A stretch of DNA of 64,000 bases from Escherichia coli (GCF_003991155.1 NZ_CP031293.1); one strand, 5' to 3'. Positions 40,495-47,932 are shown, counted from the stretch's first letter. The notes: a model not told the origin generated them from the sequence alone. Program-made: numbers and translations.

Positions 40495-40700
40495 GCTTAT
40501 TCTCAGGGCGGGGCGAAATTCCCCACCGGCGGTAAATCAACTCAGTTGAAAGCCCGCGAGCGCTTTGGGTGCGAACTCAAAGGACAGCAGATCCGGTGTA
40601 ATTCCGGGGCCGACGGTTAGAGTCCGGATGGGAGAGAGTAACGATTCTGTCGGGCATGGACCCGCTCACGTTATTTTGGCTATATGCCGCCACTCCTAAG
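40495..40700 (+). promoter_or_regulatory. FMN riboswitch (RFN element) in ribB leader
   Basis: Conserved RFN core ...agggcggggcgaaattccccaccggcggtaaatcaactcagttgaaagcccgcgagcgctttgggtgcgaactcaaaggacagcagatccggtgtaattccggggccgacggttagagtccggatgggagagagtaacg... upstream of ribB. Confidence 0.85.
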
Positions 40701-42778: not shown

Positions 42779-43594
42779 ATGACACCTTTAGTTAAGGATA
42801 TCATCATGTCTTCAACACGTATGCCAGCATTGTTTTTAGGTCACGGTAGTCCGATGAACGTGCTGGAAGATAATTTGTATACCCGCAGCTGGCAGAAGTT
42901 GGGGATGACATTGCCACGCCCGCAAGCGATTGTGGTGGTTTCGGCTCACTGGTTTACCCGTGGAACAGGAGTGACCGCGATGGAGACGCCGCCCACGATT
43001 CATGACTTTGGTGGCTTCCCGCAGGCGCTGTACGATACGCATTATCCTGCTCCGGGTTCGCCTGCGCTGGCACAGCGTCTGGTTGAGCTGTTAGCGCCGA
43101 TCCCGGTGACGCTGGATAAAGAAGCCTGGGGCTTTGACCACGGCTCGTGGGGCGTGCTGATTAAGATGTATCCTGACGCTGATATCCCGATGGTGCAGTT
43201 GAGTATCGACAGTAGCAAACCTGCCGCCTGGCATTTCGAAATGGGGCGCAAACTGGCAGCGCTGCGAGATGAAGGAATAATGTTGGTCGCCAGCGGTAAC
43301 GTGGTGCATAACCTGCGCACAGTGAAGTGGCACGGTGATAGTTCACCGTATCCGTGGGCGACGTCGTTTAATGAGTATGTGAAAGCGAATCTGACGTGGC
43401 AAGGGCCAGTGGAACAACATCCTCTGGTGAATTACCTCGACCATGAAGGTGGCACGTTATCGAACCCAACGCCAGAGCATTATTTGCCGTTGTTGTATGT
43501 GTTAGGTGCGTGGGATGGGCAGGAGCCAATTACCATTCCGGTTGAGGGTATAGAAATGGGCAGCCTGAGTATGCTGTCGGTGCAGATAGGCTAA
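42779..43594 (+). CDS. ygiD: Extradiol ring-cleavage dioxygenase class III (DOPA-dioxygenase-like) YgiD; true start may be the internal Met at 42806
   Basis: ...MPALFLGHGSPMNVLEDN...SAHW...HN motifs of LigB-type dioxygenase. Confidence 0.85.
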   Translation: MTPLVKDIIMSSTRMPALFLGHGSPMNVLEDNLYTRSWQKLGMTLPRPQAIVVVSAHWFTRGTGVTAMETPPTIHDFGGFPQALYDTHYPAPGSPALAQRLVELLAPIPVTLDKEAWGFDHGSWGVLIKMYPDADIPMVQLSIDSSKPAAWHFEMGRKLAALRDEGIMLVASGNVVHNLRTVKWHGDSSPYPWATSFNEYVKANLTWQGPVEQHPLVNYLDHEGGTLSNPTPEHYLPLLYVLGAWDGQEPITIPVEGIEMGSLSMLSVQIG

Positions 43595-43631
43595 CAATTA
43601 CCGGATGGCGAGTGCCATCCGGTATCGTGGC

Positions 43632-44792
43632 TTATTCAACAAAAATATGTGGATAAAACCGAGACATATCCTGGGTGATCAATGCACGGTCTTCACGAAT
43701 GCCAATTCCGGCGGGTTGATCGTTCACCAGCCAGCTACCAATCAGCATATAGCTGTCGCCGAATTTCGGTAACGGGTGGAATTGCTGAACAATCATCCCT
43801 TCTTCGCCATACGGACCTTCCGCTGCTTCAATGGTTTTGCCGTTCTCAATGATCGACACGTTTGCGCCTTCACGGGAGAAGATCGGTTTAACCACATATT
43901 TTTCCATTTGCGGATGATCATCTTCCGCAAAATAAGCGGGCAGCAGGTTCGGGTGATTCGGGAACATCTCCCACAGTAGCGGTAGAAGTGCCTTGTTGGA
44001 GATAATGCTCTTCCACGCCGGTTCCAGCCAGCGTACGCCTGCATCCTCCAGCTTGGTTGAGAACATCTCACGCAACATAAATTCCCACGGATACAGTTTG
44101 AACAGGTTGGAAATTACCTGATCCTGTAAATCCGTGAACTGACCTTTTTCACCTAACCCGATATCATCGATGTAGAGGAACTCAGTAGCAATTTCAGCTT
44201 CCGTTGCGCAGTCCTGCAAATACTGAATGGTTCCGCGATCTTCCACCGTGTCGCGACAGCAGGTGAGATGCAGCAACTGGAAGCCATACTGTTCACGCAG
44301 CTCAACGAAGCGATCGATCAGTTTTTCTTGCAGACTGTTAAACTGGTCGCTGCCCTCCGGCAAGTTACCGGCGTTAAGCTGATCTTCCAGCCAGATCCAC
44401 TGAAAGAACGCCGCCTCGTATAGTGACGTTGGCGTATCGGCGTTATTTTCCAGAAGTTTAGGTTCACCAGTGCCATCCCACGCCAGATCAAGACGCGAAT
44501 AAAGCGATGGCTGGTGCGTCAGCCATGACTGGCGCACAAAACTCCAGGTGTGTTTTGGAATGCGGAATTTGGTCATCAGCTCATCGCTGGCGATCACTTT
44601 TTCCACCACTTTCAGGCACATCTGGTGCAGTTCGGCGGTGACTTCTTCCAGCTTTTCAACCTGGGCGAGGGTCAACTTGTAGTAAGCATCTTCACACCAG
44701 TACGGCTCGCCGTACATGGTGTGAAAATTGAAACCGTATTCGTGGGCTTTCTCACGCCAGTCCGGGCGCTCGGTAATACTGACTCTTTCCAT
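43632..44792 (-). CDS. ygiC: Glutathionylspermidine-synthase-like ATP-grasp protein
   Basis: 386 aa [32 protein letters not shown]... Confidence 0.85.
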
Positions 44793-44797
44793 CGGTA

Positions 44798-45469
44798 TCA
44801 GCCACCCATTGAACGAGAAGAGGTACCGGTTGCACTACGCTGCATAGTGCTTTGTTTGGCAACAGATTCACCAAAACCGCCACGGGTAACGGTAGTGGTG
44901 GTCGCCGGTTTTGGTGCCATTGCCGTCTTCGGTACGGTCATGGTGCGGCCTGGCTGGGCTGCGCCATAGTTTTTACCCGTCGCGTCGGTATATTTACCGT
45001 AAGCCGGACTGGCTGGGTTTTTCGAGGAGAACAGCGGCTGCTGTGCAAATCCCGCGCCGCCGCCCATCAGACGCCCCATCATGTAACCGGCCATCAGCGG
45101 CATCCAGAAACTCCCGCTGGATTGCTGGGCCTGCGCCTGGTTTTCTGGTGCCATGCCAGCCTGGGCTGGTGCCTGCTGGCACTGACCTTCACCAAATTCA
45201 GCAACACAGTCTTCACGGGTGGCGTATTTCGGCGCAGTACGTTCGGCTTCTTTCAGCGCATTGTTGTACGCGGTGGTACATTCGGCGCTTTTGCCTGGGT
45301 TTGCAGCTGAACAGTCGTCAGCATTTTGATAGAGAGACACTGTTTCATCACTCTTTTCACAGCCAGCCAGCATAAAAACAGTGGCAACCGCGAGAGCGAC
45401 TGGTGTCAGATGGCGTGCGCTCCAGTTTTTGCGGAACGATGCGTGGCGTATGGATTTTGTCCGTTTCAT
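44798..45469 (-). CDS. ygiB: DUF1190 family lipoprotein-like protein YgiB
   Basis: 223 aa from [16 protein letters not shown]...; operon with tolC. Confidence 0.8.
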
Positions 45470-45616
45470 TTTTGTCTTCCGGGACCAGTGGTAAATACCC
45501 ATCAGAATAGAGGATGGCTGGTCGAAATTGAAGCGAGAAGGGGGAAGAATGCGGCAGATAACCCGTATCTTTACGTTGCCTTACGTTCAGACGGGGCCGA
45601 AGCCCCGTCGTCGTCA

Positions 45617-47098
45617 TCAGTTACGGAAAGGGTTATGACCGTTACTGGTGGTAGTGCGTGCGGATGTTTGCTGAACGACTGGTGCCGGGCTATCAGGCGC
45701 ATAACCATCAGCAATAGCATTCTGTTCCGGCGTTTGCGGTGCAACGTTTTCCGGATTAGTGGAAACCGGTTTGCTCAGCGCATTGTTCAGTGCCAGCAGA
45801 TCCTGCTCGTTCAACGTACCCAGAGCTGACTTAATATTCAGCTGATTAATCAGGTAGTTATAACGCGCATTCGCCAGCTCTTGCTTGGCGTTGTACAACG
45901 TGGTGGTCGCATCCAACACATCAACAATGGTACGCGTACCGACCGAGTAGCCCGCTTCCATCGCGTCTAATGAGCTTTGAGCGGAAACTACGGCTTGTTT
46001 GTAGGCGTTAATGCTACTGATAGATGCATTAATGTTGTTGAAGGAGGAACGCACGGTCTGCACGACGCTACGATGGGCACTTTCCAGTTGCTCGCTGGCA
46101 CCGACAAAGTTGTACTGTGCCTGTTTCACCTGCGAGTTAACCATTCCGCCCTGATAAATCGGCAGCGAGAAGCTCAGGCCAACTTTGTTCTGGCCCATAT
46201 TGCTATCGTCATACTGGGTACCAGCGGCACCACGGGTTTTCGAACCGCTATAAGAGGTGTCAGAAATCCCGGTAGAAGCCGTTAAATCCAGAGTCGGTAA
46301 GTGACCATCCTGCGCCTGGCGAATTTGCTCGCGCGCCAGGTCCTGGCTCAAGCGTGCCTGTAACAGCGACAGGTTGCGTTTTTCGGCTTCTTTCAGCAGC
46401 GCGTTAACCGGCTGTGGTTTGTCGGTTTTAAAGTTTTCGACATTCAGCGCAGCCAGTTCCGGATAGTAGTTACCGGTGATCTGGCGCAGCTGCTCTACCG
46501 CGTTATCAAGGTTATTACGTGCGGTCACTTCGTTCGCCAGCACGGTATCGTACTGTGCGCGGGCGTTCTGCACGTCGGTGATCGCTACCAGGCCCACGTT
46601 AAAACGTTGGGTGGTTTGATCTAATTGACGGTAGATCGCTTCTTTTTGTGCCTGTGTATAGGAAAGAACGTCAATAGCATTCAACACGTTGAAATAAGCG
46701 GTCGCGGTGTTGAGGATCAAGGTTTGCTGATCGGTCTGATACGTGACGTCCTGAATCCCTGCTGCTTTTTCCTGCAGCGTTAACGCACGCCATTTCGACA
46801 TATCAAAAATGGATTGAGTTAACTGCAAGGACGCACTGGTCGCGTTAGAGTTGATGCCGTTCGCGTCGCGGTAGCCGTTGCTATAGGTGTAATCTGCACC
46901 TAAACCTAGCTGTGGCAGTAATGGACTGCGCGCTTCATTAATTTTTTCAAAGGCAGCATCACGATCGGCGGCAGACTTACGCAATTCCGGGTTACTAAGG
47001 CGTGCTTGCTGATAAACTTGCATCAGGTTCTCGGCCTGGCTCAACGAACTGAACCCAGAAAGGCTCAGGCCGATAAGAATGGGGAGCAATTTCTTCAT
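45617..47098 (-). CDS. tolC: Outer-membrane efflux channel TolC
   Basis: 493 aa from MKKLLPILIGLSLSGFSSLSQAENLMQVYQQARLSNPELRKS... Confidence 0.97.
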   Translation of the reverse strand: MKKLLPILIGLSLSGFSSLSQAENLMQVYQQARLSNPELRKSAADRDAAFEKINEARSPLLPQLGLGADYTYSNGYRDANGINSNATSASLQLTQSIFDMSKWRALTLQEKAAGIQDVTYQTDQQTLILNTATAYFNVLNAIDVLSYTQAQKEAIYRQLDQTTQRFNVGLVAITDVQNARAQYDTVLANEVTARNNLDNAVEQLRQITGNYYPELAALNVENFKTDKPQPVNALLKEAEKRNLSLLQARLSQDLAREQIRQAQDGHLPTLDLTASTGISDTSYSGSKTRGAAGTQYDDSNMGQNKVGLSFSLPIYQGGMVNSQVKQAQYNFVGASEQLESAHRSVVQTVRSSFNNINASISSINAYKQAVVSAQSSLDAMEAGYSVGTRTIVDVLDATTTLYNAKQELANARYNYLINQLNIKSALGTLNEQDLLALNNALSKPVSTNPENVAPQTPEQNAIADGYAPDSPAPVVQQTSARTTTSNGHNPFRN

Positions 47099-47302
47099 TT
47101 GCATTCCTTGTGGTGAAGCAGTATTTAGCGCGATCAAACTGTAAAATTATTGCGGATTCTAGCAGAAGCCGCTACCGCAAAAGGTTGGCGTTACGTGCCA
47201 TAGGGCGTTAATGTGCCTCAATTTAACACATGACTGCTCAAACGGCAGTCAAACGTCGCTGAAATTCACATTTAATTCACTATTAGTGCCAGGACATTAA
47301 CA

Positions 47303-47932
47303 ATGCTTAAGCCAGACAACCTGCCCGTTACATTTGGCAAAAACGATGTAGAAATTATTGCACGAGAAACACTTTATCGCGGCTTTTTTTCATTAGATCT
47401 TTATAGATTTCGTCATCGTCTATTCAACGGGCAAATGAGTCATGAGGTGCGGCGGGAAATTTTTGAGCGCGGTCACGCCGCAGTCTTGCTACCCTTTGAC
47501 CCAGTGCGTGATGAAGTTGTGCTGATTGAGCAGATTCGGATTGCCGCGTACGACACCAGCGAAACCCCTTGGCTACTGGAGATGGTTGCCGGGATGATTG
47601 AAGAGGGTGAAAGTGTGGAAGATGTTGCCCGTCGCGAAGCGATTGAAGAGGCGGGACTGATAGTCAAACGGACCAAACCGGTGTTAAGTTTCCTGGCAAG
47701 CCCGGGGGGCACCAGTGAGCGTTCGTCAATTATGGTGGGCGAAGTGGACGCCACGACCGCAAGCGGTATTCACGGTCTGGCTGATGAAAACGAAGATATT
47801 CGCGTTCATGTGGTAAGCCGGGAACAGGCATACCAGTGGGTAGAAGAGGGGAAAATCGACAACGCAGCGTCGGTCATCGCTTTGCAATGGCTGCAGCTGC
47901 ATCATCAAGCGTTAAAAAATGAGTGGGCATAA
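47303..47932 (+). CDS. nudF: ADP-ribose pyrophosphatase (Nudix)
   Basis: 209 aa, Nudix box ...[22 protein letters not shown]... Confidence 0.93.

Follow-up and report, generated by a model that had tools for sequence, protein, structure and literature searches.

The tolC-ygiB-ygiC locus of Escherichia coli: two probable, overlapping expression units and a conserved DUF1190-GSP_synth gene pair

Organization of the tolC-ygiB-ygiC locus

The stretch of DNA analyzed here comprises 64,000 nucleotides of Escherichia coli (NZ_CP031293.1), referred to below as the window, and carries the genes tolC, ygiB and ygiC on its minus strand (Table 1). The window is E. coli K-12: the segment from 43000 to 47600 is 100% identical to MG1655, and 5420 of the 5426 complete E. 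coli genomes carry the stretch at almost its full length. The three minus-strand open reading frames (ORFs) coincide with the RefSeq annotation of MG1655, again at 100% identity. A preliminary description, made by a model from the sequence alone, had placed three co-oriented genes with these names between 43632 and 47098, and both the layout and the gene identities hold; the locus is the well-known tolC-ygiB-ygiC of E. coli and as such already known. The same description presented the three genes as a conserved operon. The analysis favors, with a probability of roughly 0.6, two overlapping expression units, namely tolC with some read-through and a CpxR-driven ygiBC envelope-stress cassette that contains the ligase YgiC.

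Between ygiB and ygiC the gap is 5 bp, as previously described, and in 73 of 74 Enterobacteriaceae loci it amounts to 5 or 2 bp. The gap between tolC and ygiB had been given as 118 bp and has to be corrected: counted from the annotated ygiB start it measures 147 bp (45470-45616), and an alternative ATG at 45502, which would lengthen the ygiB ORF, would leave 114 bp. The value of 147 bp is the correct one, because conservation extends to the ATG at 45469 and its Shine-Dalgarno-like GGAAG, and the ATG at 45502 is not conserved outside Escherichia.

Table 1. Features of the tolC-ygiB-ygiC locus (positions in the window)
Feature	Position	Strand	Description and basis
tolC coding sequence, outer-membrane channel	45617-47098	-	493 aa; ORF and RefSeq; Pfam OEP PF02321 in two stretches, 209 bits
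Hairpin past tolC	45590-45609	-	GACGGGGCTTCGGCCCCGTC; GC-rich, 8 nt past the tolC stop, without U-tract; sequence and folding
CpxR-like tandem box	45570-45584	-	GTAAGGCAACGTAAA; ends 100 nt upstream of the ygiB ATG; motif match and conservation
Putative ygiB promoter	45504-45532	-	-35 TTCAAT (45527-45532), 17-nt spacer, -10 TATTCT (45504-45509); inside the conserved spacer block
ygiB coding sequence, DUF1190 lipoprotein precursor	44798-45469	-	223 aa; Pfam PF06693; NCBIfam NF008655 equivalog
ygiC coding sequence, stand-alone GSP_synth/ATP-grasp ligase	43632-44792	-	386 aa; Pfam PF03738; identical to PDB 7UK8/7UKA
Hairpin past ygiC	43600-43623	-	ACCGGATGGC-actc-GCCATCCGGT; past the ygiC stop, common to convergent ygiD; folding

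Putative regulatory signals between tolC and ygiB

For footprinting, tolC-ygiB spacers were taken from 74 Enterobacteriaceae species genomes, with counts of the CpxR-like box made over 75 spacers; the genome scan with YgiC that was used for this purpose returned only Enterobacteriaceae, at 89-99% identity. Spacer length ranges from 64 to 626 bp across the family. The tandem box in the E. coli spacer resembles the CpxR consensus GTAAA-N5-GTAAA and is the only match to the searched pattern GTAAR-N5-GTAAR within the 64-kb window, where 0.34 matches are expected. It has been kept in 69 of the 75 spacers and its flanks diverge; in two distant DUF1190 loci the tandem box was not found. Downstream of the box lies the block CTCGCTTCAATTTCGACCAG.CATCCTCTATYCTGA, which is the most conserved part of the spacer and almost invariant. 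The hexamers TTCAAT and TATTCT inside this block would be the -35 and -10 elements of a ygiB promoter, both being too weak to be recognized by a consensus scan.

Published expression data agree with a separate control of ygiB. In Citrobacter rodentium, a ygiB-lux fusion of ~300 bp is CpxRA-dependent, the regulation of a tolC-lux fusion differs from it, and ygiB is preceded by a putative CpxR site at a distance of 91 bp. In E. coli, overproduction of BaeR raises tolC expression 1.9-fold, with no significant change in ygiB and ygiC. The position and conservation of the box, together with the Citrobacter data, make the case for CpxR control, which would then extend to ygiBC in E. coli itself. Given the Cpx promoter of Citrobacter, the conserved box and the effect of BaeR on tolC alone, tolC and ygiBC are at most partly co-transcribed. 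The operon of the preliminary description would have to be supplemented by an internal promoter dependent on Cpx.

The tolC-proximal part of the spacer is not conserved. The hairpin listed in Table 1 is found in Escherichia and some Citrobacter, and other genera have sequence resembling repetitive extragenic palindromic (REP) elements at this place. In E. coli it folds as an 8-bp stem, and the entire 81-nt region is unexceptional (z -1.6). A stem-loop of one kind or another seems to be retained behind tolC, but its identity varies. The E. coli hairpin may serve as a partial terminator or as a 3'-end stabilizer of the tolC mRNA; since it has no U-tract, read-through is likely. REP-like palindromes, for example GCCGATGGCG...CGTAGGTCCGGTAAG, were noted in the tolC-proximal spacer half of four Citrobacter and Salmonella loci.

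Three further observations concern the spacer and ygiB. An 86-aa ORF (45357-45617, minus strand) runs from the tolC stop region across the spacer into ygiB, in a different frame; we take it to be the old 'ygiA' (b3036), which a 2009 operon table still lists. The spacer that it spans varies in length between genera over the range given above, so that this ORF does not qualify as a conserved gene. The 5'-untranslated region of ygiB, GGAAGACAAAAATG (45470-45482, minus strand), has an ACA at the position of a listed MazF cleavage site: ygiB is listed as a member of the MazF regulon, with cleavage 6 nt ahead of the AUG (PMC5001579), and MazF stress may therefore give rise to a near-leaderless ygiB mRNA. 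Finally, GCGGCGCGGGATTTGCA has been published as a sigma-54 binding site of the intragenic type (IS37, distance column 258, downstream gene ygiC; PMC4591121). It occurs exactly once in the window (45044-45060, minus strand), within ygiB, and might drive some transcription of ygiC.

The conserved DUF1190-GSP_synth pair

In all 74 Enterobacteriaceae loci with enough flanking sequence, tolC, ygiB and ygiC are adjacent. In Edwardsiella tarda and Photorhabdus (YgiC 78% identical), ygiB-ygiC is intact and tolC is not its neighbor, and the same absence of tolC linkage applies to all more distant DUF1190-GSP_synth loci. The conservation claimed for the operon therefore extends over the Enterobacteriaceae and ends there. 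The wider genomic context was taken from 11 exact-protein look-ups, one of which returned a contig that was too short. A DUF1190 gene (29-44% identity to YgiB) is directly followed by a GSP_synth gene in six of seven informative, diverse contigs. The pair stands alone (L084-L087), behind genes for a K-channel and a DUF350 protein (L083, L089, L092) or at the end of a DUF2170-PspA-K channel-DUF2491-DUF350 run (L082).

The same pair occurs a second time in E. coli. The genes yjfI-J-K-L-M-C encode, in this order, DUF2170, PspA, DUF2491, DUF350, DUF1190 and GSP_synth proteins. This order matches the 'third group' of PspA operons, in which DUF1190 and a Gss-like ATP-grasp protein accompany PspA-CesT/K-channel/DUF350 (Ravi et al. 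2024, mSystems, PMC11237479). Judged by gene order, what is conserved is a DUF1190 gene with GSP_synth directly behind it, and not tolC-ygiBC. Because the pair and its order are those of the yjf/PspA clusters, ygiBC can be viewed as a probable cut-down duplicate of the last two genes of yjfIJKLMC, a PspA-linked polyamine/membrane-stress cluster, which in Enterobacteriaceae would have come to stand behind tolC under Cpx control.

Some individual loci deserve mention. In Edwardsiella tarda (contig positions 6304-9847), the convergent neighbors of ygiBC are an Orn/Lys/Arg decarboxylase (OKR_DC_1) and an amino-acid permease, so that a polyamine-producing pair adjoins the polyamine-ligase cassette. 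An atypical DUF1190 protein, P0345 (217 aa), is without the FMPxMAG segment and has a His/Ser-rich tail that ends in VGG. The gene that follows it encodes, in place of a ligase, a 148-aa protein without Pfam match, and P0345 may represent a divergent DUF1190 subfamily with a different partner. Two E. coli records (P0121 and P0122; 569 aa) annotate a DUF1190+GSP_synth 'fusion'. Their junction reflects a frameshift close to the ygiB stop, by which the reading frame continues across the 5-bp gap. Probably these fusions are either artefacts of sequencing or annotation or else rare mutants.

The ATP-grasp ligase YgiC

YgiC matches the Pfam family GSP_synth with 546.7 bits (cutoff 29.3) over residues 12-384 of 386. 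Over its full length (residues 1-386) it is identical to residues 9-394 of 7UK8_A (E 4.6e-273), one of the two crystal structures (7UK8/7UKA) deposited under the title 'Putative acid--amine ligase YgiC'; the paralogue YjfC, with 51% identity, is represented by 7UK6/7UK7. Across Enterobacterales, out to Photorhabdus, Yersinia and Serratia, YgiC remains 77-80% identical, and by this measure the protein is under strong constraint. In a HMMER alignment, YgiC residues R100, D102, E115 and N117 correspond to R316, D318, E330 and N332 of glutathionylspermidine synthetase (Gss), which are reportedly ligands of ATP and Mg. All four are invariant in an alignment of 30 sequences with identities down to 41%. 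The assignment of YgiC as a Gss-like ATP-grasp homologue, and the comparison with the Gss active site that had been proposed as a check, are thus borne out, with crystal structures already at hand. As far as its residues tell, YgiC is a live enzyme with an intact catalytic site, and the objection that it might be catalytically dead falls away.

Biochemical work on YgiC already exists. According to a 2025 TolC review and another paper citing the work, purified YgiC and YjfC had no glutathionylspermidine synthetase activity (Sui 2012). Papers citing Pederick et al. (2023, Biochemistry 62:899) attribute to both proteins a peptide-spermidine ligase activity in vitro. Furthermore, YgiC was found in an inner-membrane association screen. 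As a cytoplasmic ATP-grasp ligase, YgiC would, by analogy with Gss, spend ATP on converting the C-terminal carboxylate of a peptide into an acyl-phosphate, which would then be amidated with spermidine. The preliminary description had regarded ygiB and ygiC as a pair of genes with no assigned function and a good candidate for undiscovered biochemistry, with no established substrate for YgiC. The 2025 TolC review likewise treats the physiological substrate and role as open, but with structures and, on the word of the citing papers, an in-vitro ligase activity available, part of this biochemistry has already been discovered.

YgiB and the DUF1190 family

YgiB belongs to a family of 794 clusters at 50% identity and scores well above the thresholds of both its profiles (187.4 bits against a cutoff of 22 for PF06693; 404 bits against 223 for NF008655). 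Its lipobox, LAGC at residues 34-37 (C37), fits the pattern [LVI][ASTVI][GAS]C after a hydrophobic stretch, and a lipobox-like match is present in most of 115 DUF1190 representatives. In a family alignment of 91 diverse members, C37, C53, C64 and C88 are conserved at 100% and C97 at 98%, followed by P124 (98%), G128 (95%), R196-G200 (96-100%), G222 (84%) and G223 (82%). The conserved motifs are TAPKY, [FW]xMPxMAG[YF]M, QPL[YF] and RGGFG, and YgiB ends in RSMGG. YgiB thus carries the complete family signature of a lipobox Cys, four further Cys, FMPxMAG, RGGFG and a C-terminal Gly-Gly.

YgiB has been predicted to be an outer-membrane lipoprotein (2025 TolC review; C. rodentium paper) and was detected in the envelope-vesicle proteome of a tolA mutant; a periplasmic location appears probable from its lipobox and cysteines. 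The signal peptides of the family (YgiB 1-37, YjfM 1-56) have an unusually long basic n-region with a net charge of about +4 to +6. Within it, MKR is near-invariant (K2 and R3 at least 90%), and many members also have an FRK-like motif. Such an n-region is atypical of lipoprotein signal peptides and may be a cytoplasmic recognition element. An AlphaFold2 (AF2) model of YgiB, built with a diverse alignment, is confident (predicted local distance difference test, pLDDT, 82.5; predicted template modeling score, pTM, 0.73), with the last ~12 residues flexible. No solved structural relative of the model was found, and YgiB is predicted to have a compact fold of its own that would be new. The charge is distributed asymmetrically, at -6.8 for the Cys domain and +9.8 for the tail. 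A transmembrane helix with a cytoplasmic basic tail, to which this asymmetry pointed, was considered and rejected. The Met-rich segment is weakly hydrophobic (mean Kyte-Doolittle value 0.70, none above 1.6), and AF2 places this segment, as a beta-hairpin, together with the 'tail' in a confident beta-sheet.

The extreme C-terminus of the family was counted in 104 DUF1190 representatives with the GGFG motif, each from a different 50%-identity cluster. A Gly-Gly end is present in 83 of these, with 3.6 expected from shuffled tails (at most 10 in 2000 shuffles). Of the 83 proteins ending in GG, 67 have W, F or M at position -3, and Ser stands at position -4 in 76 of the 104. RSMGG persists in 116 of 120 clusters of close orthologues, with drift in the residues ahead of it, and YjfM, which is only 24% identical to YgiB, ends in HWGG. 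This S-[W/F/M]-G-G signature at the C-terminus of DUF1190 proteins is a new observation.

Expression model and alternative readings

In the favored reading, the first unit would be tolC, transcribed from its own upstream promoters and ending in the GC hairpin, which probably passes some transcription on. The second would be ygiB-ygiC, translationally coupled across the 5-bp gap, with a promoter inside the 147-bp spacer that CpxR would activate during envelope stress. YgiB, as an exported, lipid-anchored and cysteine-rich DUF1190 protein, would be the obligate partner of YgiC. The pair would act as an envelope-stress tolerance module, and its loss would for that reason worsen tolC-null and Cpx-related phenotypes. 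Several observations weigh against this model. The lone CpxR-like match is not significant by itself, as 30% of shuffles contain at least one, and the tandem box was not found upstream of ygiB in Edwardsiella and Photorhabdus. A consensus scan detected no minus-strand sigma-70 promoter in the tolC-ygiB spacer, nor did it report a terminator there. In addition, the localization of YgiB is a prediction, and the pairing of a cytoplasmic ligase with an exported lipoprotein leaves their cooperation without explanation.

Against this model stands the classical view of a single operon, in which the tolC promoters alone drive all three genes and YgiB and YgiC assist TolC-dependent efflux as accessory factors. 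Co-orientation and adjacency hold for the 74 Enterobacteriaceae loci, and read-through of a hairpin without U-tract would carry transcripts into ygiBC. The 2025 TolC review describes tolC-ygiBC as an operon, credits the co-transcription to Dhamdhere and Zgurskaya (2010) and associates deletion of ygiBC with the severe growth impairment that tolC mutants show in minimal glucose medium, so that loss of the pair aggravates the tolC-null phenotype. However, the same review states that deletion of ygiBC leaves the localization, folding and activity of TolC unaffected. The spacer contains internal signals, namely the hairpin, the conserved CpxR-like box and the promoter block, and the ygiB promoter of Citrobacter is separate and Cpx-dependent, with ygiB-lux and tolC-lux reported to be oppositely regulated. 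BaeR induces tolC alone, and the pair does without an adjacent tolC in Edwardsiella and Photorhabdus and stands in yjfMC or PspA/K-channel operons elsewhere. Taken together, these points make the single operon improbable. Another reading would make YgiC a redundant glutathionylspermidine synthetase, that is, a Gss minus its amidase domain. The GSP_synth match of 547 bits, the homology to the synthetase domain of Gss (residues 251-617, E 3e-34) and machine-learning annotators, which predict Enzyme Commission number 6.3.1.8 for YgiC, all point that way. The protein nevertheless reaches only 168.1 bits against the cutoff of 882 for the Gss equivalog NF007801; the residues S335-A-S337-C338 beside the Mg ligands of Gss are replaced by T120-P-T122-S123, and an internal Gss insertion of ~40 residues is missing. 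With the purified protein reported as inactive in this reaction, the redundant-synthetase reading is, per the cited literature, already refuted experimentally and can hardly be correct.

A third proposal concerns what the ligase acts on and takes YgiB and YjfM, and DUF1190 proteins generally, to be the physiological substrates of YgiC and YjfC, spermidine being attached to the terminal Gly of the pre-lipoprotein while this is still in the cytoplasm, ahead of Sec export. The nearest characterized relatives, Gss and trypanothione synthetase, amidate the glycine carboxylate of glutathione. With this type of glycine amidation, a YgiC that accepts peptides in vitro (according to the citing papers) and a GG end encoded directly upstream of ygiC, YgiB becomes a candidate substrate. 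The excess of GG ends in the family, the near-constant RSMGG among orthologues and the persistence of HWGG in the distant YjfM are in line with this proposal, as are the predicted flexibility of the last ~12 YgiB residues and the ligase gene directly downstream of DUF1190 in diverse loci, Edwardsiella and Photorhabdus included. The long basic n-region (MKR[ST]...FRK), with its conserved K2 and R3, might have a role in docking. In the open-access literature, no paper was found to propose the DUF1190 C-terminus as a ligase substrate. The compartments do not match, however: the lipobox of YgiB, four further conserved Cys that suggest periplasmic disulfides and its detection in vesicles suggest a place outside the cytoplasm, where the ATP-dependent YgiC resides, and the modification would therefore have to precede export. 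A transmembrane helix with a cytoplasmic tail, which would resolve the mismatch, is contradicted by hydrophobicity and the AF2 model. In an AF2 model of YgiC fused through a GGSx5 linker to YgiB 148-223, the ligase folded well and the whole tail stayed below pLDDT 50 without docking, which is a weak test as it lacked ATP/Mg and alignment depth for the tail. Moreover, the ligase also accompanies DUF1190 proteins with a terminal Ser or Ala, which make up about 20% of the family. Modification of YgiB by YgiC is thus a tentative idea and on balance rather unlikely.

Few outer-membrane proteins have been studied as well as TolC, and for YgiC both structures and an in-vitro activity have become available. 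The remaining question is why a cytoplasmic peptide-polyamine ligase is encoded right behind an exported lipoprotein of the DUF1190 family and what its target in the cell is, and the conserved C-terminal Gly-Gly makes the ligase-substrate question directly testable. If the substrate proposal were true, the pair would produce, on demand under Cpx/Psp envelope stress, an envelope lipoprotein that is tipped with a polyamine and has a fold not seen before. C-terminal polyamination would then be a new protein modification in bacterial envelope-stress responses and would explain the tolC, Cpx and Psp phenotypes. If it were false, ygiBC would stay a modestly interesting, partly characterized y-gene module.

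Other features of the region

The locus is flanked by the divergent nudF and the convergent ygiD. The hairpin past the ygiC stop folds at -24.7 kcal/mol (z -6.0), a value that none of 200 shuffles reached, and likely marks, as a putative terminator, the end of the transcription unit. A Rfam scan of 43300-47500 at E <= 1 gave zero matches. RefSeq annotates a flavin mononucleotide (FMN) riboswitch ahead of ribB at ~40495-40643 (plus strand), ~3 kb off and unrelated to tolC-ygiBC. The match in the E. coli strain 'tolC-' (NZ_CP018801.1) is the only one of the top matches to be split in two pieces, with an IS5 element beneath, which is consistent with an IS5 insertion inactivating tolC in this laboratory strain.

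Comparison with known ligases and PspA-linked operons

The protein encoded by ygiC in the window is the same as the crystallized YgiC over all 386 residues, with no sequence difference, so that the structural data on the YgiC/YjfC ligases apply to it directly. Among more distant enzymes, Gss (PDB 2IO7) and trypanothione synthetase (2VOB) share a homologous pre-ATP-grasp/ATP-grasp domain with YgiC (E 3e-34 and 9e-40, respectively). The catalytic R/D/E/N residues of Gss are also found in YgiC, and spermidine is the amine substrate of both, for YgiC in vitro and as related by citing papers. In contrast to Gss, which has an N-terminal CHAP amidase domain, YgiC has none and aligns to the synthetase part alone, and Gss uses glutathione whereas YgiC, again from citing papers, reportedly does not. 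These sequence comparisons place YgiC within the GSP_synth superfamily, yet outside Gss itself.

RimK, which acts on ribosomal protein S6, and tubulin-tyrosine ligase are ATP-grasp enzymes that join an amine to the C-terminal carboxylate of a specific protein. The strongly conserved extreme C-terminus of DUF1190 proteins would, by analogy only, fit a substrate of this kind. The acceptor of RimK and tubulin-tyrosine ligase is an amino acid, whereas that of YgiC would be a polyamine and its candidate substrate an exported lipoprotein; the weak AF2 fusion test described above was negative.

The closest counterpart of ygiBC as a gene pair is the end of yjfIJKLMC and of the related PspA operons, whose last two genes encode DUF1190 and GSP_synth proteins in the same order and with tight spacing. 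Between the two E. coli pairs, identity is 51% for YjfC and YgiC and only 24% for YjfM and YgiB. Unlike these operons, ygiBC is not accompanied by genes for PspA, DUF2170, DUF2491, DUF350 and K-channel proteins, and in Enterobacteriaceae it sits instead behind tolC under a CpxR-like box.

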